Positions 12,083-46,583 of a DNA stretch of 58,868 nt are shown here, piece after piece (the first letter of the stretch is position 1; each line of letters starts with the position of its first letter). The notes beneath the pieces were generated by a model, which saw nothing but the letters and a program-made list of their open reading frames with translations, made no database searches and was not told where the DNA came from. Source of the DNA: a virus (Duplodnaviria; Caudoviricetes); IMG/VR virus record IMGVR_UViG_3300020438_000040, positions 1-58,868 of that record; one strand, 5' to 3'. Both the position numbers and the translations under genes were made by a program.

Positions 12083-13285
12083 ATGACATTCCAAATTATG
12101 GATGATAAAAAAGATTGCGCAGGAGTTTACGTTGATGGAAAATTTATTTACGACAGAATACCCGACAATATTGATGGTACTTGGGGCTATTCTGATCACC
12201 TTCGAGACCGGCACATTCAATATGCTTACTTATGGACATTGGGATCTAGGATATCCGATATTTGCCCAGAACATCTTAAAGCCAGATGGGAATCCAGAGA
12301 AAAGAAAATAAGATCTCACTTCAAGTCGTTACAAACAGTCAAAATAAACTTCGACGATGTGTGCTTTTTTGATTTAATCCCAGACAAGCAATTAGAGCAT
12401 TATTTCCAGACTAAGAACGAAATATGCGATTGGGTTTTTGCTAACGTTGACAAGCCAACACACTACGGCCTACTGCATGACGGTTATATAACAATACAAA
12501 ATCTTCAAAAACGTGCCCTACATATCAATAAACACAAATTATTTCGATATTCCCAAAAGGATATGAAAGCAAGGAGTTTATGGAACTGGATAAAGGGTCG
12601 ACAAGAAGTATACGTTAAATACAACCTCTTTGGTAGCGTTACAGGACGCTTAACAACGACGGAGGGGTCATTCCCCATAATGAATCTTAAAACGGAATTA
12701 AAGGACATTGTCGAGCCCAAATGGGACTGTTTTTTGGAACTTGATTTTAATGCCGCCGAGATAAGAACAATGATTTCCCTAATGGGACAAAAACAACCAC
12801 AGGAGGATATTCATGAGTGGAACATCAAAAATATATTCAAACAAGACATCACAAGAGCAGAGGCAAAACAAAAGTTTTTTGCTTGGCTCTATAACTCGGA
12901 AAACAAAACTATCGATTCTGAATTCTATAGCAAAAGCGATCTCGTCGAAAAGTTTTATTGCGAAGAACAAAAAGAAATACGAACCCCTTTTGGTAGAAGG
13001 ACAGCTTGTGATAGATTTCACGCGCTCAACTACTTGTTGCAATCTGCTTCCTCCGATAACTGTCTTGACCGCGTCAACAAAATTGAAAAATTCTTAACAG
13101 GGAGAAAAAGTTATGTCGCCTTTACTATACACGATTGTGTTATTATCGACCTTCATGGGGACGATAGGGATCTCATTCCACATATCAGACAAATTTTCGA
13201 AGATACTAAACTTGGGCAGTTCAAATCGTCATGTCATATCGGAAAAAACTTCGGAGACATGCGAGAATTCAAGTGGAAAAATTAA
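12083..13285 (+). CDS. Minimal family A DNA polymerase-like protein (polymerase domain only)
   Basis: GSVTGRL, motif A LELDFNAAEIR, motif B RAEAKQKFFAWLY, NYLLQSASSD, motif C FTIHDCVI. No recognisable exonuclease domain. AGGAGGAC RBS. Confidence 0.8.
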   Translation: MTFQIMDDKKDCAGVYVDGKFIYDRIPDNIDGTWGYSDHLRDRHIQYAYLWTLGSRISDICPEHLKARWESREKKIRSHFKSLQTVKINFDDVCFFDLIPDKQLEHYFQTKNEICDWVFANVDKPTHYGLLHDGYITIQNLQKRALHINKHKLFRYSQKDMKARSLWNWIKGRQEVYVKYNLFGSVTGRLTTTEGSFPIMNLKTELKDIVEPKWDCFLELDFNAAEIRTMISLMGQKQPQEDIHEWNIKNIFKQDITRAEAKQKFFAWLYNSENKTIDSEFYSKSDLVEKFYCEEQKEIRTPFGRRTACDRFHALNYLLQSASSDNCLDRVNKIEKFLTGRKSYVAFTIHDCVIIDLHGDDRDLIPHIRQIFEDTKLGQFKSSCHIGKNFGDMREFKWKN

Positions 13286-13485: not shown

Positions 13486-14291
13486 TTATAGGACTCGGAC
13501 AAGCAGGTTGCAATATAGCAGAACTGTTCAAGCAACATAAACAATACGAAGTTGTTCTTCTTGATGAAGGAAAAGGAATCAAGAAAAACGATTCAGTTGA
13601 AGGATATGACTCAATAGATTATAAACCTCGACGTAAGGCTATCAAATCGGCCACTGAGGGCGTTCTTTTTGTTTGTGGTAGTGGTAAGATAGCGGGAGCC
13701 TCTCTGCGCGTTCTAGAGGCTCTGAAGCACGCTAAAATGACTGTTGTATATATCTATCCTGACCTTGAGTTTGCATCCGACATTGAGCGGAGAAGAAATA
13801 AGGTTCACTTCAATGTACTACAGGAATTTACTCGCTCTGGATTGATACACGAAATGCTTTTATTGGACAACAAAACGATGGCTGATTTAACACCAGCAGG
13901 AACAGTGTACGATTTCTATAAAAATATCAATTATCTTGTGTATTCAACAATTCATACCTTAAATTATTGTGCGAACGTGAAGCCTGAATTCACATCAACG
14001 CATACACCAAAGGAAATCAGTCGTATATCGACGATTGGATATGCAAAATTTGAAGAAGATGAAGAAAAGCTGTACTTTCCACTTGACAACATCACGGAGA
14101 CGTGTTATATTATTAACATAAATGAAGAAGAACTCGCTAATGATGTTTCAATTATGCCTAATGTAAAAGGAATGGTTCGAGACAATAAGAAATTAGAAAG
14201 AGATACTTCATTTTCAATTTGGTCCACAACTGAGGGCACAAACTATTATTATGCGAGGCATTACACGCATTTTGTTCAAGAAAAAACTTGA
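13479..14291 (+). CDS. Tubulin/FtsZ-family (PhuZ/TubZ-like) protein, divergent
   Basis: N-terminal IIGLGQAGCNIAE, degenerate T4 loop CGSGKIAGAS, YIYPD, LLDN, IN. Confidence 0.75.
   Translation: MLIIGLGQAGCNIAELFKQHKQYEVVLLDEGKGIKKNDSVEGYDSIDYKPRRKAIKSATEGVLFVCGSGKIAGASLRVLEALKHAKMTVVYIYPDLEFASDIERRRNKVHFNVLQEFTRSGLIHEMLLLDNKTMADLTPAGTVYDFYKNINYLVYSTIHTLNYCANVKPEFTSTHTPKEISRISTIGYAKFEEDEEKLYFPLDNITETCYIININEEELANDVSIMPNVKGMVRDNKKLERDTSFSIWSTTEGTNYYYARHYTHFVQEKT
14083..14111 (+). promoter_or_regulatory. Sigma70-type early promoter (inside the tubulin gene)
   Basis: TTGACA-N17-TATATT with extended -10 TG. Confidence 0.7.
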
Positions 14292-14316
14292 CAAGTTAAC
14301 CACAACACGTTATATT
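14288..14316 (+). promoter_or_regulatory. Sigma70-type early promoter
   Basis: TTGACA-N17-TATATT. Confidence 0.85.
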
Positions 14317-14345
14317 ATAAGTATAATACAAAACAAGGAGATAAA

Positions 14346-14423
14346 ATGGGATTAATATTCGCAACAGTAATATTCATTTTTGCATTCACTTGGTTCTGGA
14401 TGTGGGTTCACGAAAAATTTTAA
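14346..14423 (+). CDS. 25-aa single-pass membrane peptide (MGLIFATVIFIFAFTWFWMWVHEKF)
   Basis: Own promoter and AAGGAG RBS. Not in the ORF track. Confidence 0.7.
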   Translation: MGLIFATVIFIFAFTWFWMWVHEKF

Positions 14424-14431
14424 ATAAATAC

Positions 14432-14460
14432 TTGACAACCTGATTATAGAAGGTTATATT
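14432..14460 (+). promoter_or_regulatory. Sigma70-type early promoter
   Basis: TTGACA-N17-TATATT. Confidence 0.85.
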
Positions 14461-14490
14461 ATATAAACAATAGAGAAGCAAGGAGATGAA

Positions 14491-14589
14491 ATGCTTAGTT
14501 TAATGTTATTCACACTTATTGGGTGTGGCGAAAAAGAAGAAGAATCAAGCGACACAGCATCCGCTGTCGAAGCTTCTGAAGAAAGTTAA
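14491..14589 (+). CDS. 32-aa putative lipoprotein (MLSLMLFTLIGCGEKEEESSDTASAVEASEES)
   Basis: Own promoter, AAGGAG RBS, lipobox LIGC, acidic tail. Not in the ORF track. Confidence 0.7.
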   Translation: MLSLMLFTLIGCGEKEEESSDTASAVEASEES

Positions 14590-14598
14590 GATAATCAC

Positions 14599-14627
14599 TT
14601 GACAACTTAACCGTAATGGGTTATATT
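14599..14627 (+). promoter_or_regulatory. Sigma70-type early promoter
   Basis: TTGACA-N17-TATATT. Confidence 0.85.
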
Positions 14628-14655
14628 ATTATATGTTCAACACAAAGGAGTTAAT

Positions 14656-14910
14656 ATGAGCATCACGCAGCAGTTCACGGTATATACCGGCACATTCGTA
14701 AACCAAACTGGTTTTCAACGACAAATGAGATTCATCAAAGTATCGGATTTCCCTTCATCAGTAACAAGTCGCTTTAAAAGCACTCGTAATCTGCAACAAG
14801 GGTACGAGACAGTATATGATGTAGATCTCGGAAAATATAGGACTTTCAACTATAACACAATGGTTGGTCAGTTGTCCTCAACGACTAGCAATGTAACTAT
14901 TGCAGTCTAA
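14656..14910 (+). CDS. Small SH3/Sm-like beta-barrel protein (DUF2693/WYL_2-like)
   Basis: F...G..R.M.F.....VYDVDLGKYRTFN pattern. AAGGAG RBS. Confidence 0.55.
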   Translation: MSITQQFTVYTGTFVNQTGFQRQMRFIKVSDFPSSVTSRFKSTRNLQQGYETVYDVDLGKYRTFNYNTMVGQLSSTTSNVTIAV

Positions 14911-14963
14911 CCCCCCCTCATAGGTTTTGCTCATTTTTCCTTAAAAAATGTTCACTTTTTTAC

Positions 14964-14992
14964 TTGACAAAGTTTAAAATATATGTTATATT
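14964..14992 (+). promoter_or_regulatory. Sigma70-type early promoter of ssb
   Basis: TTGACA-N17-TATATT with extended -10 TG. Confidence 0.85.
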
Positions 14993-15085
14993 ATAACTGT
15001 AAGTAAATATTCAAACACAAAGACAAATTAACGGTAAGGTTGAAACCCTGCCGTATATAATAGCAACTACAAGGAGAACTTAATC

Positions 15086-15853
15086 ATGGCTATTGATATT
15101 GAAGCGATGCGAGCCAAACTAAATGCATCTAAAACTGGTAGAAAAGGTCAAACTAATAATACGAAATGGAGACCAACTCAAGGAGACCAAACCATTCGTA
15201 TACTTCCTACATCAGACGGTGACCCGTTTAAGGAATTTCACTTTCATTATAATGTAGGCAAAAATCCCGGAATTCTATGTCCTAAGAAAAATCATGGAGA
15301 AGACTGTCCAATCTGTGATTTTGCGTCCAAACTGTGGCGTGAAGGAGTTGAAGGTGACGATAATTCATTAAAGAACGAAGCAAAGAAGCTATTTGTTCGT
15401 AAGCGTTATTATTCTCCGATACTTGTTCGAGGAAATGAATCTGAAGGAGTAAAAGTTTGGTCTTATGGAAAGACTGCGTATGAAACATTGCTGGGTTATG
15501 TCCTCGACCCTGACTATGGTGATATTACAGATGCTGAAACTGGAACTGATATTGTATTAAATTATGATGTTCCCGGCACACCCGGTTCTTTCCCTAAGAC
15601 CACCCTAAAACCTCGTCGACGTCCGAGTATATTATGCGATGAGTCTGTCGCTGATTGCGATCAATTGATAGAATCTATTCCTGATATTGGCGGTCTTTTC
15701 GAAAGAAAGACAACAGAAGACATTCAAGCAATACTTGACGATTTCTTGTCTACCGACACGTCCTCCGAAAGTAGATCGACTGAAACAACCAAGTATTCGA
15801 AAAATAACTCGAATGTTGACGAGGAATTTAAAAAATTCATGAACGACGGTTAA
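15086..15853 (+). CDS. Single-stranded DNA-binding protein (T4 gp32-like)
   Basis: WRPTQG..IRILP, HYN..CP....DCPIC zinc motif, RYYSPILVRG, GVKVWSYGK, YGDITD...GTD, acidic C-terminus. Confidence 0.9.
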   Translation: MAIDIEAMRAKLNASKTGRKGQTNNTKWRPTQGDQTIRILPTSDGDPFKEFHFHYNVGKNPGILCPKKNHGEDCPICDFASKLWREGVEGDDNSLKNEAKKLFVRKRYYSPILVRGNESEGVKVWSYGKTAYETLLGYVLDPDYGDITDAETGTDIVLNYDVPGTPGSFPKTTLKPRRRPSILCDESVADCDQLIESIPDIGGLFERKTTEDIQAILDDFLSTDTSSESRSTETTKYSKNNSNVDEEFKKFMNDG

Positions 15854-15917
15854 GTCGTAGTCCTCCTGTGTTGAAAGGGTCGCCGTCCACCCTAGAAAGA
15901 AAGGGCGGCATTTTTTT
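15854..15917 (+). ncRNA. Candidate 3'-UTR regulatory RNA: anti-RBS segment, H-type pseudoknot, U-tract
   Basis: GTCCTCCTGTGTTG (15860-73). Stem 1 AGGGT/ACCCT, stem 2 GCCGTCC/GGGCGGC, then A and T7. Confidence 0.5.
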
Positions 15918-16003
15918 AATGATTATGATACTCTATTGATGTTTAGAAAGAGTATTGTAATCCGTCAAACCGAACGAATCGGAAAAAATAGGAAAAAATA
16001 AAA

Positions 16004-17203
16004 ATGATATTTTATCATAACATAAGGACCTTCCTTTCACAGGAACGTCAATTAATTAAAGTAGACCGTGCTTTCCAACGAAAAAGTTGCTGGACACTTG
16101 CGCAAAAAAGGAGATATATTATTTCCTTCTTAAAAAATAGGACTCCTTACCCAGTTGTCCTTGCGGACATTAGAACAGGTCTTATGCGCTCCAAAGACAT
16201 TCAAAGTTCCGAAGATATCAGAAAGTACGAAGAACTTACTAATGAGGGTAAATCCCGTGTAAGCCTAGACGGGCAGAATCGAATCAAGACTCTTGAAGAA
16301 TTCTACAACAATGCATGGGGAATTACCGGAGATCTTATGGGCGCTGATGGTGTAGTATATCCTGTAAAAGATGTACTATACAAAGATTTACCAACTCGCT
16401 TAAAAGATGCTTTTGATATGCTTCAGGTTAGCGTATATGTTCAGCAGAACTGTTTGTATTCTGAACTACACACTATCTTTGTTGATATTAATGATGGCGA
16501 AGGATTAAATCCTCAAGAAAAGCGTAATGCTATAATGACTTGGTTCTCAGGACACATTAGGAATTTCGCTGAAACACAAAATCATGAAAAGTTGTTATTA
16601 AGAATATCCGGAATGAAAGAGCAGGATATTAAACGATCTACTGATGCCGAGTGGTATACAAAAGCCTATGTATCTTTAGTTCAGCCTGATAAGCATTACT
16701 TAAATAGGTCTGGTCTCGATGCTTTTTACAAACAGGGTGAAGGTCGCCAACAAGCAAGCATTTCAGACTATAGTCGAGACAAGGTTGATCGCTTTGAGAA
16801 AGTGGTTGAGATGGTATACCGTGCTGTCTTTTCAAAAACCGTGATTGGTACTCCCATAAGTCAAAAGCTTTTCTGGGCTTTATTGATTGCCTCGGCTGAT
16901 GTATACGATACTGGTCAAAGAATTACAGATTATTCAATCCTTTTTGATGCTGTAAAACAGGCCGACTGTTCGTTATGTATTGATTCTAACGATGATTTTG
17001 TAAAGGATTTTAAAACTTGGCAGGGGTTACCTAATCCGTGCCCAAAACAAGAGCCAAAAAAATCCCAGTACTATTTCCACTGGGCTAGTGACGTAAACAA
17101 GCCTACAGTGCGGCAAAAAAGAAAATCTGAACTCTTGAGAGAACTTAAAAATATGAATCTATATCACGATTCTTTCAAAGTTCAATCCCAAGCAGCAAAA
17201 TAA
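16004..17203 (+). CDS. DUF262 (GmrS/ParB-Srx-like) domain protein
   Basis: FQRKSCW....YIISF, SLDGQNR, IFVDINDGEGLNPQEKRNA. Confidence 0.8.
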   Translation: MIFYHNIRTFLSQERQLIKVDRAFQRKSCWTLAQKRRYIISFLKNRTPYPVVLADIRTGLMRSKDIQSSEDIRKYEELTNEGKSRVSLDGQNRIKTLEEFYNNAWGITGDLMGADGVVYPVKDVLYKDLPTRLKDAFDMLQVSVYVQQNCLYSELHTIFVDINDGEGLNPQEKRNAIMTWFSGHIRNFAETQNHEKLLLRISGMKEQDIKRSTDAEWYTKAYVSLVQPDKHYLNRSGLDAFYKQGEGRQQASISDYSRDKVDRFEKVVEMVYRAVFSKTVIGTPISQKLFWALLIASADVYDTGQRITDYSILFDAVKQADCSLCIDSNDDFVKDFKTWQGLPNPCPKQEPKKSQYYFHWASDVNKPTVRQKRKSELLRELKNMNLYHDSFKVQSQAAK

Positions 17204-18382: not shown

Positions 18383-18410
18383 ATATATCTTGTCGTTTGT
18401 TTTCTCCTAT

Positions 18411-18445
18411 AGCCCTTCCTTGTTTTTGCAGGGAAGGGTTTTTTT
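18411..18445 (+). terminator. Rho-independent terminator after recA
   Basis: AGCCCTTCCTTG/CAGGGAAGGGTT stem followed by a T tract. Confidence 0.8.
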
Positions 18446-18456
18446 ATTATAAAAAC

Positions 18457-19614: not shown

Positions 19615-19633
19615 AAAAATAACAGGAGGACAA

Positions 19634-28155: not shown

Positions 28156-28488
28156 GGGCTCGCAATGGCTTCGACGGGCTAGAATCAAGGGGAGAGTGCA
28201 TGCAGGCGTGAATCAGCCTTAATCGTTCAAATTTTTATAAACGCAAACAATAATTTGTTTTTCGACGAAGTCGCTTTAGCGGCTTAATCGGGTGGTCGCC
28301 CTGAACCATCTATCCAAGACGGGCAAAAACAACAGGATAGTTGCAAAAATCACAACTCTTTCGGCCACGGACTATAGAGTATAACATGCAGTGGATACCT
28401 CGCTAGGAGGGAAATAACTAGACAAGCATGTGAATGACTCAAACTAAGACTAGCGCGGACAGGGGTTCGATTCCCCTCGAGTCCACCA
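28156..28488 (+). ncRNA. ssrA: tmRNA; tag peptide (A)ANNNLFFDEVALAA encoded at 28243..28287
   Basis: Acceptor stem GGGCTCG/CGAGTCC with G3-U wobble and ACCA end. 5' GGCTTCGAC, T-arm AGGGG-TTCGATT-CCCCT, resume context ATAAAC-GCA, tag ending ALAA-TAA. Confidence 0.95.
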
Positions 28489-29600: not shown

Positions 29601-29676
29601 GGGGGTATAGCTCAGTTGGGAGAGCGTCTGCCTTGCACGCAGAAGGTCGTGAGTTCGATCCTCGCTACCTCCACCA
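29601..29676 (+). tRNA. tRNA-Ala (TGC)
   Basis: 76-nt cloverleaf: acceptor GGGGGTA/TACCTCC with G3-U70, anticodon arm TCTGC-CT-TGC-AC-GCAGA, TTCGATC loop, encoded CCA. CTAATTA at 29582. Confidence 0.97.
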
Positions 29677-37193: not shown

Positions 37194-37211
37194 TTGTTTT
37201 CGTGTTACATT
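37183..37211 (+). promoter_or_regulatory. Sigma70-type early promoter
   Basis: TTGACA-N17-TACATT. Confidence 0.75.
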
Positions 37212-37232
37212 ATAAGTAACGTTGGAGGACAA

Positions 37233-37937
37233 ATGAATATTTTTAAAAAGACAGACTCACTGTCGTTAATGAAGGAAATAAAAAACAACACTGTGGACTT
37301 GGTATTAACTGACCCGCCTTACATCATAAGCAAACCGTCAGGTTTCAAAAGCGTGGTAACTGGAGAGCAGCGTTTTGCTGTGTCGACGGATCATGGAGAA
37401 TGGGATAAAGAGGAAAATTTTTCTCTGGAAGATTTGCGAGATTCCGTTTTTGAGTATTATCGCGTTCTTAAGAAGCATGGTACAATGATTACCTTTTGTG
37501 ACCTGTGGAAGATTAGTGATATAAAGCGTATAATGGAATTAGCAGGGTTCAAGCAAATTCGATTGATCGAATGGATCAAAACAAACCCTGTCCCTTTAAA
37601 TTCCAGTAGAAACTACCTCAGCAACGCTAGGGAAGTCGCTCTCCTAGGCGTAAAGGTCAGCAAACCCACGTTTCACTCGCAATACGATAATGGTGTATAT
37701 CGTTATCCTATCTGCCACGAAAAAGGGAGATTTCACCCGACACAAAAACCCCTTGCTTTTATGGAAGCATTGATAAAGAAACATAGCAACCCGGGAGACG
37801 TGGTTTTGGACAGCTTCGCCGGCTCAGCAGCAACGCTGCTCGCCGCCAAAAATTTGCACCGTGGGTACATCGGATGCGAGCTAGACGAGGAATTCTTCAA
37901 AAAAGCAGAGATAAGATTAAATAAGGAGTTACAATGA
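37233..37937 (+). CDS. DNA methyltransferase (N6-A/N4-C, beta class), orphan
   Basis: DLVLTDPPY, HPTQKP, VVLDSFAGSAAT, IGCELD. GGAGGAC RBS, ATG 37233. Confidence 0.92.
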   Translation: MNIFKKTDSLSLMKEIKNNTVDLVLTDPPYIISKPSGFKSVVTGEQRFAVSTDHGEWDKEENFSLEDLRDSVFEYYRVLKKHGTMITFCDLWKISDIKRIMELAGFKQIRLIEWIKTNPVPLNSSRNYLSNAREVALLGVKVSKPTFHSQYDNGVYRYPICHEKGRFHPTQKPLAFMEALIKKHSNPGDVVLDSFAGSAATLLAAKNLHRGYIGCELDEEFFKKAEIRLNKELQ

Positions 37938-40714: not shown

Positions 40715-40743
40715 TTGACAACTATTCTCTGATCGGTTATATT
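40715..40743 (+). promoter_or_regulatory. Sigma70-type early promoter
   Basis: TTGACA-N17-TATATT. Confidence 0.85.
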
Positions 40744-40764
40744 ATAAATAACATTGGAGGACAA

Positions 40765-41280
40765 ATGAACATATTTGCAATTGAACAAACGCCATCCGGC
40801 GACATCGACTGGGTTAAATCAGCCCAATCACAAGACAATTACCGCGTAGTCAAGATGATACTGGAATCCGTCCAGATGCTATGCACCGCGATCAACGACC
40901 AGCACGGAGAGCAGGTCACACCTTATCGTAATGCTCACCTTAACCACCCATCAACTAAGTGGGTACGTGAGTCATCAGCCAACTTCGAGCGGCTCGTAGA
41001 GCACACGTTAGCAATGCTTGATGAATATACAGAACGCTTCGGCAAGATCCATAAGTGCGCTGGCGTACTAGAGAAGGTCTTGGATCTTTACGACCCCGAT
41101 AGGTTTGGTTGTCATGTCGACACACCCTTGCCGATGTGTATGCCCGATGAATTCAAAGGTGACTCCATCGTTGAGTCATACCGCAAATTCTATGCTAGCA
41201 AGCCTCGTATGCGTTATCCAACAGAGAAGATCCCTGTTTGGTTTAACCAATACCGAGAGTTACCATTTCAAGAAATTTAA
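40765..41280 (+). CDS. Pyrimidine-dimer DNA glycosylase-like (DenV-related) protein
   Basis: MNIF, VVKMILESVQMLCTA, HLNHPSTKWVRES, EYTERFGKIH, CMPDEFK, VESYRKFY. Confidence 0.75.
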   Translation: MNIFAIEQTPSGDIDWVKSAQSQDNYRVVKMILESVQMLCTAINDQHGEQVTPYRNAHLNHPSTKWVRESSANFERLVEHTLAMLDEYTERFGKIHKCAGVLEKVLDLYDPDRFGCHVDTPLPMCMPDEFKGDSIVESYRKFYASKPRMRYPTEKIPVWFNQYRELPFQEI

Positions 41281-45543: not shown

Positions 45544-45568
45544 CAATCCATCCACAACATGTTATATT
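45540..45568 (+). promoter_or_regulatory. Sigma70-type early promoter
   Basis: TTGACA-N17-TATATT. Confidence 0.85.
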
Positions 45569-45587
45569 ATATAATATTGGAGGACAA

Positions 45588-46583
45588 ATGAACATTATAA
45601 GAACCGGTGACTCGAGAGAGTTACTTAAACAACTTGAATCAAAATCGGTCAATGCTGTATACTTTGACCCACCTTTCAACTCGAATCGTAATTATCGCCT
45701 AACAAGCGATAAGAACAGTTTGGGCTTTGATGATGTGTTCGTCGATGATGATGAATATACATCATTGATCGATCCAATGCTTGAAGAGTGCTCTAGGGTC
45801 CTGACGAAGGACGGGTCACTGTTCTTTCATATCTCGGCAGATCAAATGCTTATACCGCATATGCTTTGCTCGAGACACTTTAAGAACGTACAGCCAATCT
45901 TCTGGCAGCGTTCAAGATCAAAGAACAATACCAAGACTAAATTAGGCGCATGCACTGATATCATCTTCTGGTGTTCAAATGTAAAGAAGCCAAAGTTCAA
46001 TATGGTCTATCAGCCTCTTGACGAGTATTACGCTGAGAATTCATATAAAAATAAAGACTCAAGGGGCAACTATGCCTTTGGACACATCTGCTATACGAAA
46101 ACCCAAGCACCAGACCCAGAGAAGAGGCCCGATAGATATTTCACTCTAACACACGACGGGGTTGATTACAAGCCTCAGTATGGCTGGAGATTGTCTCAGG
46201 AAGCCCTTCACGATCTGATCTCTGATGATCGTATACATTTTCCTTCTAAGGCTGGTGCAAAGCCATATAAGAAGATCTATAAGCACGAATCAAAGGGCAA
46301 ACCGGCTACTGACTACTGGGATGATATCCACTCAATTGCTCAAGGCGGCGAAGAGCGAGTGTATCCAACTCAAAAGCCTGTCGCCTTGCTTAGAAGAATA
46401 ATTGAAATGTCCACCGATGAAGGTGATGTGGTGTTGGATCCTGTAGCAGGATCAGGTACAACAGGCGTGGCTGCTTCACAACTCGGCAGAAATTATATTT
46501 TATTTGATATTTCCGAAGAGGCGGTTGAGGTTTGCAAGAGACGAATAAAAAGTGAAGGAAAAAACTTGACAACCAATCAATAA
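45588..46583 (+). CDS. DNA methyltransferase (N6-A/N4-C, beta class)
   Basis: GDS..LL, YFDPPF, YPTQKP, VVLDPVAGSGTT. ATG 45588 with GGAGGAC RBS. Confidence 0.92.
   Translation: MNIIRTGDSRELLKQLESKSVNAVYFDPPFNSNRNYRLTSDKNSLGFDDVFVDDDEYTSLIDPMLEECSRVLTKDGSLFFHISADQMLIPHMLCSRHFKNVQPIFWQRSRSKNNTKTKLGACTDIIFWCSNVKKPKFNMVYQPLDEYYAENSYKNKDSRGNYAFGHICYTKTQAPDPEKRPDRYFTLTHDGVDYKPQYGWRLSQEALHDLISDDRIHFPSKAGAKPYKKIYKHESKGKPATDYWDDIHSIAQGGEERVYPTQKPVALLRRIIEMSTDEGDVVLDPVAGSGTTGVAASQLGRNYILFDISEEAVEVCKRRIKSEGKNLTTNQ

Follow-up and report, generated by a model that had tools for sequence, protein, structure and literature searches.

A Conserved Anti-Shine-Dalgarno Motif Joined to a Pseudoknotted Terminator Downstream of the ssb Gene in Uncultured Phages

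Introduction

Phage T4 supplies a textbook example of translational control by an RNA pseudoknot, the autoregulation of gp32. This report concerns the 3' untranslated region (UTR) of a gp32-family ssb gene in an uncultured virus of the Caudoviricetes, represented by the IMG/VR record IMGVR_UViG_3300020438_000040. The whole record of 58,868 bp, a fragment with an estimated completeness of 32%, was analysed and is called the window below. Shortly after the ssb stop codon the window carries the motif GTCCTCCTGTGTTG, which is complementary to Shine-Dalgarno (SD) sequences, and behind it an intrinsic terminator. The element is best described as two joined parts, an anti-TIR stretch, complementary to a translation initiation region (TIR), and an intrinsic terminator folded as a pseudoknot. 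The motif and the pseudoknot probably help to shut translation off.

In T4, the operator of gene 32 is described as a 5' pseudoknot plus an A/U-rich leader (PMC3014915, PMC535899). Like the T4 message, the gp32-type ssb mRNA considered here carries a compact H-type pseudoknot. In T4 the pseudoknot sits at the 5' edge of an unstructured leader overlapping the ribosome-binding site (RBS), whereas here it is found at the 3' end, past the stop codon, where it also serves as the terminator. It shows no sequence similarity to the T4 operator and belongs to no Rfam family. The 5' UTR has a different conserved hairpin of its own, and the 3' pseudoknot is, by analogy, only a candidate for gp32 binding. 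According to a T4 review, gp32 autoregulation beyond the T-even phages needs more study and no trans-acting small RNA (sRNA) has been characterised in T4 (PMC3014915). The same source describes the T4 genes e, soc, 49 and I-TevI, in which an upstream complementary segment hides the SD in read-through transcripts (PMC3014915). A module placed in this manner is found before the ssb promoter, after a gene of 84 amino acids (aa), whereas the ssb module of the window has no downstream SD nearby.

Pairing between distant parts of one mRNA is also described in bacteria. A 2025 preprint on Bacillus subtilis reports pairing of the RBS with anti-SD-like 8-mers that lie hundreds of nucleotides further along the mRNA; the pairing promotes decay and inhibits initiation, genes are depleted of such words, and icaR and hbs are cited as cases of 5'-3' UTR pairing (PMC12697547). 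As in icaR of Staphylococcus aureus and in hbs of B. subtilis, an anti-SD-like pyrimidine motif stands here in the 3' UTR of the same mRNA as the SD region that it could pair with, and occlusion of the RBS is predicted. Unlike these two, the present case is a phage ssb mRNA, its motif lies within the footprint of the terminating ribosome and is fused to a pseudoknotted terminator, and the pairing is a prediction without covariation between its two sides. The long-range words of B. subtilis are likewise CCUCC-like and hundreds of nucleotides from the RBS; they are deleterious and depleted (PMC12697547), whereas the present one is positively conserved and so implies a regulatory use under selection. 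Since selection in bacterial mRNAs normally works against anti-SD-like words, the conserved motif is a candidate for a natural, testable example of regulated long-range RBS occlusion.

The type II 3'-UTR-derived sRNAs of enterobacteria, such as CpxQ, SroC and NarS, have a conserved seed right after the stop codon and share the terminator of their mRNA. The ssb tail has the same layout, a seed just past the stop with a shared terminator. Unlike theirs, its seed is a generic anti-SD and not gene-specific, and no conserved trans target sites beyond the generic GGAGGAC match were found in the tests run. A literature search of limited scope, which does not prove absence, returned no report of a pseudoknot fused to a phage ssb terminator or of a conserved anti-SD in a phage 3' UTR. 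In a large uncultured marine phage family, ssb appears to carry a different conserved RNA architecture in which the pseudoknot is the terminator, and one clade adds a positively selected anti-SD to it.

Conservation of the Anti-SD Motif

The gene and the first two parts of its 3' UTR are as follows.

15086 to 15853, plus strand: ssb gene, gp32 family (Pfam PF08804, E 9.1e-18), with its stop codon at 15851-15853
15854 to 15859, plus strand: stop-proximal GTCGTA, with two possible pairing partners, ATGGC in the start region and ACGAC directly ahead of the stop
15860 to 15873, plus strand: anti-SD or anti-TIR single-stranded motif GTCCTCCTGTGTTG, 6 nt after the ssb stop

From the stop codon onward the order is GTCGTA, GTCCTCCTGTGTTG, AAA, a structured region and T7 (15911-15917). 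The initial annotation, drawn from the window alone, had given the motif and its coordinates correctly. Taken by itself, the window holds the motif at chance level. GTCCTCC occurs twice on its plus strand against about 1.7 times expected from base composition, CCTCC occurs 22 times against about 28, the complement of the 14-mer with at most three mismatches is found at 8 sites against 3.6 +/- 1.9 in shuffles, and in a sliding RNAduplex scan the coding regions hold equally good sites. The element itself is single copy in the record.

Relatives were collected by a search of viral contigs for SSB, which gave 80 loci of 48-87% identity, 77 of them including the region after the ssb stop. The expectation that the element would be kept downstream of ssb was borne out within one clade: it lies directly after ssb in 22 of the 77 loci, with CCTCCTGTGTT nearly invariant. 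The window and these 22 carrier loci, whose SSBs are 66-87% identical to that of the window, are called clade A. In an alignment of the window with 20 distinct relatives (21 sequences), CTCC is invariant and TGTGTT nearly so, and each of the window positions 15862-15872 is at least 90% conserved; the hexamer before them has the variants GTCATA, ATCGTA and CCATA. CUCC begins 1-10 nt past the stop in every one of the 21 sequences, at 9 nt in 12 of them. A covariance model built from the carriers gives the 22 loci and the window 55-86 bits and all others at most 29 bits. In an IQ-TREE tree of SSB the carriers form one group with a single change (support 90/77, 86% of bootstrap trees), and therefore the element had one origin and was then kept through the divergence of SSB. 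In the records of five relatives, matches that are exact or have one mismatch occur only at ssb, except for one 1-mismatch site in the complete genome L003, whose own ssb variant is beyond the cut-off of two mismatches. The flanking terminator stem changes by compensatory substitutions while the motif stays.

By these comparisons the motif is real, under selection and more than chance. The opposite reading, a functionless anti-SD-like word that happens to lie in the spacer before a terminator, agrees with the window counts, which are at expectation. It is already contradicted by conservation, the motif being near-invariant in 21 distinct sequences whose SSBs are only 66-87% identical while adjacent stem positions vary compensatorily, and it is very improbable.

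Two coding explanations of the motif were rejected. The initial annotation had stated that no start codon follows on the minus strand; in fact, an antisense ATG 22 nt past the antisense GGAG opens a 38-aa open reading frame (ORF, 15724-15840). Start spacing and ORF length differ among 20 relatives (none to 94 aa), so there is no conserved antisense gene. A coding extension or read-through peptide was rejected because in some relatives a 1-nt indel before the motif (seen by eye) puts it into another frame with its nucleotides unchanged.

The Pseudoknotted Terminator

The structured part that follows the motif consists of these segments.

15876 to 15880, plus strand: 5' arm AGGGT of pseudoknot stem S1, pairing with 15889-15893
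15882 to 15888, plus strand: 5' arm GCCGTCC of stem S2, the terminator stem
15889 to 15893, plus strand: 3' arm ACCCT of stem S1, inside the S2 loop
15894 to 15902, plus strand: A-rich loop L3, AGAAAGAAA, with an A-rich run in 21/21 sequences
15903 to 15909, plus strand: 3' arm GGGCGGC of stem S2, with covariation
15911 to 15917, plus strand: U-tract of the intrinsic terminator

A stable structure and a U-tract had been noted behind the motif, and both are there; that the structure is a pseudoknot had not been seen. S1 is interleaved with S2 in H-type geometry, with a first loop L1 of 1 nt and a third loop L3 of 9 nt, and the 1-nt first loop and 7-bp second stem presumably resemble the T2/T4 pseudoknot. 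The G+C-rich stem 15882-15888/15903-15909, followed by A and T7, is predicted to be an intrinsic terminator. Its loop is 14 nt long, beyond the usual short range (~3-8 nt), and for this reason a simple consensus terminator scan missed it; the six strong canonical terminators of the window have loops of 4-6 nt.

In clade A, S2 is 98% paired with compensatory changes at 7/7 pairs, a result equalled by 0/500 shuffles. The S1 core GGG/CCC is invariant there, so that covariation of S1 is uninformative, and S1 was assessed in this clade only by a script of our own because MAFFT and covariance-model alignments could not register its 5' arm. The same script was applied to 73 distinct ssb 3' UTRs, of which three have no stem and 70 were scored against shuffles. 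An interleaved S1 of the right geometry was found at shuffle p<=0.10 in 38 of the 70 (7 expected), with 31 different arm pairs. In clade E, 96.4% of cells are paired against 30-49% with slid partners, and changes on both sides are seen at 2/5 pairs of S1 and 3/7 pairs of S2, which is covariation for both helices. Among 12 terminator-like hairpins on the plus strand of the window, only that of ssb has an S1 at shuffle p<=0.05. In one metagenome a DNA variant alters nothing within the element except the 1-nt loop L1.

The geometry recurs with other sequences in most other clades, which have no anti-SD motif. By these comparisons the pseudoknot is older and more widespread than the anti-SD. A preQ1-like or other riboswitch pseudoknot was rejected, as Rfam 15 gave no relevant match at E<=10 in 14900-16100 and nothing at gathering score there in the whole-window scan. 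The covariation-supported pseudoknot-terminator is a candidate for a new RNA family.

Conservation of the pseudoknot extends to nearly all clades, among them those that lack the anti-SD, and the pseudoknot therefore has its own role. The whole element could be a site for protein recognition or 3'-end stability. In such a case the conserved stretch (CUCCUGUGUU) and the pseudoknot would be bound by a protein or would block 3' exonucleases, the candidate binders being gp32 (following the model of the T4 operator), a repressor of the RegA kind or some host factor, and the resemblance to an anti-SD would be incidental. Protein sites typically show strict sequence invariance of the kind seen here over 11 nt. 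Sources on T4 describe the recognition by gp32 of a pseudoknot in the mRNA that encodes it, and they name this mRNA, which has an RNase E site close to its stop codon, as the most stable message of the phage (PMC3014915, PMC535899). However, the T4 operator lies 5' of the TIR and not in the 3' UTR, and CUCC motifs also precede plain, non-pseudoknot terminators of other genes; the reverse complement there resembles a whole TIR (GGAG, 5-8 nt, ATG), which points to RNA-RNA pairing. A protein or stability role without SD pairing is rather improbable.

In several loci (L001, L017, L038, L040, L041, L047, L052) the region of the U-tract is replaced by a different conserved element of about 60 nt with CCTCCTCG and flanking complementary arms. 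It lies at 2600-2680 in L001 and 3800-3880 in L017 and just after the ssb terminator in the others, and it matched no Rfam family at gathering score in the four loci scanned (L001, L017, L038, L041).

Predicted Pairing With the ssb Initiation Region

The other end of the ssb mRNA offers a partner for the motif.

15064 to 15090, plus strand: ssb translation initiation region, with CAAC, ACA, the SD GGAG (15073-15076) and ATG at 15086

The initial annotation had suggested that the ssb leader (CAACTACAAGGAGAAC) can pair with the motif through bulges, and RNAduplex predicts such a duplex. It joins 19 nt of the 23-nt segment that separates the stop from S1 to the initiation region (dG -17.2 kcal/mol) in the blocks GUCGU-AUGGC, AGU-ACU, CUCC-GGAG, UGU-ACA and GUUG-CAAC. 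That the anti-SD pairs in cis with the SD and start region of its own ssb mRNA, as a 5'-3' UTR closure like that of icaR and hbs, is the leading but still tentative interpretation, held at somewhat less than even odds. In folds of full-length mRNAs (910-950 nt, spanning the predicted start through the U-tract) the ensemble probability P of pairing between anti-SD and leader is at least 0.9 in 9/13 clade-A mRNAs, and 0.77-0.95 in L043. In ssb mRNAs outside clade A, P between SD and 3' UTR is below 0.2 in 18/22; four further such loci without a recognisable promoter were left out. When the segment was replaced by CUCC-free shuffles, P fell to at most 0.22 in 5/8 mRNAs. The seeds of clade A also pair better with clade-A ssb leaders than with those of other clades (-15.6 against -13.1).

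Several results weigh against closure in cis. The folds ignore pseudoknots, ribosomes and kinetics. P is only 0.27 in the window, 0.6 in L027 and 0 in L041, and in the remaining 3/8 shuffled mRNAs (L002, L019, L047) the shuffled segments keep P 0.5-0.93. The ssb seed hardly varies, no compensatory changes between the two UTRs were found, and own leaders are no better partners than other clade-A leaders (-16.0 against -15.6, p=0.14). Shuffles of the flanks with CUCC kept match the real ssb energy in 0.3-50% of trials. In the window, the own TIR reaches -17.2 with a 23-nt segment, whereas other TIRs reach -20 to -22 with a 20-nt segment, and for the core seed the ssb TIR is average (-12.6 against -12.2 for all 246 clade-A TIRs). 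The third C of GUCCUCC is conserved yet mismatched to the ssb SD AGGAGA, and it fits the GGAGGAC sites of others. By these models the window is among the weaker cases for pairing in cis. The intramolecular closure that the initial annotation had offered as its alternative fits most relatives better than action in trans does, and the window itself poorly.

A different cis role would concern read-through transcripts, on which the anti-SD would pair with the SD of the next downstream gene as an insulator or coupling device. Translation of that gene would then require either transcripts from its own promoter or masking of the anti-SD by the ribosome that terminates at ssb. In 9/21 clade-A loci a gene with an AGGAG-type SD lies 15-25 nt past the U-tract (by eye), and the folds prefer the downstream SD in L005 (0.81) and L027 (0.92) and partly in L043 (0.36). 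The module after the 84-aa gene sits just upstream of the ssb promoter in several clades, an arrangement described for T4 (PMC3014915), and the region after ssb is variable, with insertions such as a DUF262/GmrSD-like gene in the window. Against this, the window and 11 other clade-A loci lack an SD-bearing gene close past the terminator while the motif is unchanged, the next gene of the window (16004) has a poor SD and lies about 90 nt further on, and in L002, L037 and L045 the predicted partner remains the 5' SD. The motif is also longer and more conserved than variable downstream genes would require, and a primary role in read-through transcripts is doubtful. The ORF after ssb in L049 is presumably of GIY-YIG type, judged from its opening residues only.

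The analysis shows the sequence, its conservation, the covariation of the stems and the predicted pairing; for closure with the ssb leader we infer from these the pairing in vivo, action in cis, masking by ribosomes and all functional consequences. The 3' module of the ssb mRNA would have two parts: a single-stranded anti-TIR stretch, GUCGUA-GUCCUCCUGUGUUG, complementary to the RBS, and an H-type pseudoknot whose second stem makes up the intrinsic terminator with the U-tract. The first 1-10 nt past a stop codon are inside the stretch covered by a terminating ribosome. Because the motif is within this footprint, a ribosome terminating at the ssb stop would mask it during ongoing translation. 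Once initiation drops, the anti-SD could close on the ssb SD, which would occlude the ribosome site and would probably mark the mRNA for decay, resulting in a sharper shut-off of the abundant early SSB. The pseudoknot-terminator would define and stabilise the 3' end. Taken over all interpretations, it is likely that the CUCC word works by pairing with some SD.

Possible Pairing With Other Genes in trans

The initial annotation preferred an sRNA that occludes the RBSs of other genes. A tail of about 60 nt, consisting of the seed and the pseudoknot or terminator, would be cut from the abundant ssb mRNA, remain stable and pair with GGAGGAC-type sites of phage or host genes, as an RNA analogue of a global translational repressor. 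The layout is typical of 3'-UTR-derived sRNAs, with an invariant single-stranded seed just past the stop and a structured terminator. GUCCUCC is a perfect 7-nt complement of GGAGGAC, and not of the SD of ssb itself (AGGAGA). As the annotation had listed, GGAGGAC stands upstream of the starts at 12083, 19634, 37233, 45588, 40765, 41348, 42088 and 46624, including the 10-nt match ACAGGAGGAC at 19622-19631 before 19634. It is also the SD of many clade-A genes in both sub-clades. The annotation further placed CAACACA near the SD in the leaders of 14656, 41348 and dnaE (42088), and it was found at 14638, 41327 and 42063. TIRs with GGAGGAC number 23/234 in clade-A loci against 11/370 elsewhere, a bias of about 3-fold in counts that are not phylogenetically independent, so that the proposed link between motif and RBS usage is a weak positive. 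The best partners among window TIRs belong to genes other than ssb (12813, 41348, 19634, 42088 and 40765, -19.6 to -21.4), and similar anti-TIR motifs are present on other early mRNAs.

The pairing energies do little to single out such targets. Over 65 window TIRs the real 14-mer has a mean of -11.5 kcal/mol against -8.05 +/- 0.81 for full shuffles, 0/200 of which were as good. The motif thus pairs better than shuffled controls in a trivial sense only, as nearly all of the signal is the anti-SD core: when CCUCC was kept and the flanks were shuffled, 13/200 were as good as the real seed. Close relatives, the genome containing L003 among them, do not share the CAACACA of the dnaE leader. The contiguous target AACACAGGAG has 1 exact occurrence in 810 kb against 10 for the reversed control. 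None of the gene families represented by the 246 TIRs of clade-A loci stands out consistently as a strong target, the family means of -8 to -14.1 being indistinguishable from the mean of all TIRs (-12.2 +/- 3.5). Inspection by eye of the final 100 nt of ssb, for which the only formal scan was a general one, showed no internal promoter for an independent sRNA. Action in trans is unlikely, ranking behind closure in cis and ahead of the read-through and protein or stability explanations. The interpretation in the initial annotation was thus partly supported.

The best predicted duplex partner of the seed (-21.4) lies inside the PolA-like gene, where a conserved ACCACAGGAGGATAT(T/A)CATG opens a 94-aa ORF in another frame (window 12796-13097, L002 920-1210, L010 ~1031). 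The ORF is present in the window and L002 and may be a nested gene. A further repeated cassette consists of a -10-like box, TTGGAGGACAA and ATGAAYAT (window 37200-37235, 40735-40767 and 45555-45590); it fronts three genes, two methyltransferases and 40765.

Similar Tails on Other Early Genes

Two further early genes of the window end in tails of related design.

14911 to 14961, plus strand: weaker analogous module after the 84-aa gene (14656-14910), with C-rich CCCCCCCTC, AGG/CCT, an A-U stem and a T-tract, directly before the ssb promoter
18383 to 18448, plus strand: 3' UTR of the recA/uvsX-like gene, with CTCC 3 nt before a plain terminator hairpin (18411-18440)

Homologous modules with CCUCC follow the 84-aa gene in L019, L032, L051 and others, and the clade sister to clade A has after this gene, just upstream of the ssb promoter, a module with nearly the same seed. 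Weaker covariance-model matches revealed a common layout after several early genes: stop, CUCC-type word, G/U-rich stretch and terminator. In counts based on 165 terminator-like hairpins after a plus-strand ORF, CTCC is found in the 3' UTR of 20/57 ssb, 19/38 recA/uvsX-like and 9/15 '84-aa' genes. It lies at most 30 nt upstream of 73/401 hairpins, compared with 5% of random 30-mers. In many recA-like 3' UTRs the reverse complement reads as a full TIR, the antisense ORFs being only 2-12 aa long. These 3' UTRs match their own TIR better than those of others (n=31, permutation p=0.0086), which, in contrast to ssb, is evidence of compensatory change between the two UTRs and speaks for pairing in cis, and that of L008 has a 10-nt exact complement to its own TIR. 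The recA-like 3' UTR of the window ranks 31/31 against its own TIR, which again speaks against pairing in cis. By sequence comparison, an anti-TIR stretch joined to a terminator is a recurring design in these phages, a feature that the initial annotation had not noticed.

The tails of the 84-aa gene, ssb and recA-like mRNAs, supposedly the most abundant early messages, could jointly, pseudoknotted or not, form a global repressor in trans. They would then survive mRNA decay, accumulate and repress the SD-dependent early translation of the GGAGGAC class as an RNA counterpart of T4 RegA, and a gp32-type protein might read the pseudoknot. Such a joint action is held to be improbable.

Tandem modules of CUCC and pseudoknot-terminator occur between the 84-aa gene and phage tRNA genes in L038 (2291-2535), L040, L052, L047 (60-290) and L041 (1870-2062). 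One in L047 begins with CACCTCCTT, presumably identical to the typical 3' end of 16S rRNA.

The ssb Gene and Its Surroundings

The window has a G+C content of 39.8%, and its long ORFs are all on the plus strand. The start of the ssb transcript is marked by two features.

14964 to 14992, plus strand: ssb promoter, sigma-70-like, TTGACA, 17 nt, TATATT, a consensus match with equivalents in the leaders of relatives
15031 to 15054, plus strand: 5'-UTR hairpin of the ssb mRNA, ACGG..AGG / CCT..CCGT, found by eye and conserved

The outer pairs of the hairpin vary among relatives (CGG/CCG or GAG/CTC, by eye). Its sequence is clade-specific, and most relatives, unlike the window, have behind it a CCTTAG-like motif and then a leader that is A-rich and unstructured (by eye). 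By analogy with T4, the hairpin region (15031-15060; leaders of L001-L080) is a candidate gp32 operator. The ssb promoter is the last of five near-identical sigma-70-like promoters (TTGACA, 17 nt, TATATT) starting at 14083, 14288, 14432, 14599 and 14964. The last four drive a 25-aa hydrophobic peptide (14347-14424), a 32-aa lipoprotein-like protein (14491-14589), the 84-aa gene and ssb, and 14083-14992 has the look of a region of early-promoter cassettes.

Between ssb and the recA-like gene, the window has a DUF262/GmrSD_N-like gene (16004-17203; Pfam E 2.7e-6, under the gathering score). In many relatives the gene after ssb is recA-like or a small lipoprotein-like gene, and the window gene is probably an insertion in a variable hotspot. 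A DNA similarity search gave no match of the window to cultured phages. The nearest cultured relatives by SSB, Microcystis phage Mel-JY01 and Flavobacterium phage immuto (36-40% identity), lack the 3' UTR element; recA begins 8 nt after ssb in the former and 2 nt after it in the latter. In two oligo-dT marine RNA runs (Logan contigs), ssb RNA was found as 151-nt pieces of depth 2, within the coding sequence only.

Some SSB relatives lie on contigs of metagenome-assembled genomes (MAGs) labelled proteobacterium, Legionellales or Gammaproteobacteria. One of them, L164, is a 3.5-kb contig in a MAG labelled uncultured proteobacterium; it carries a clade-A ssb with the same 3' element and is probably a phage contig binned with a bacterium. 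Because the binning of phage contigs is unreliable, no host is claimed from these labels. The window also encodes a phage tmRNA at 28156-28488 (ARAGORN tag peptide ANNNLFFDEVALAA*; Rfam RF00023, 91.9 bits) and a tRNA-Ala(TGC) at 29601-29676.

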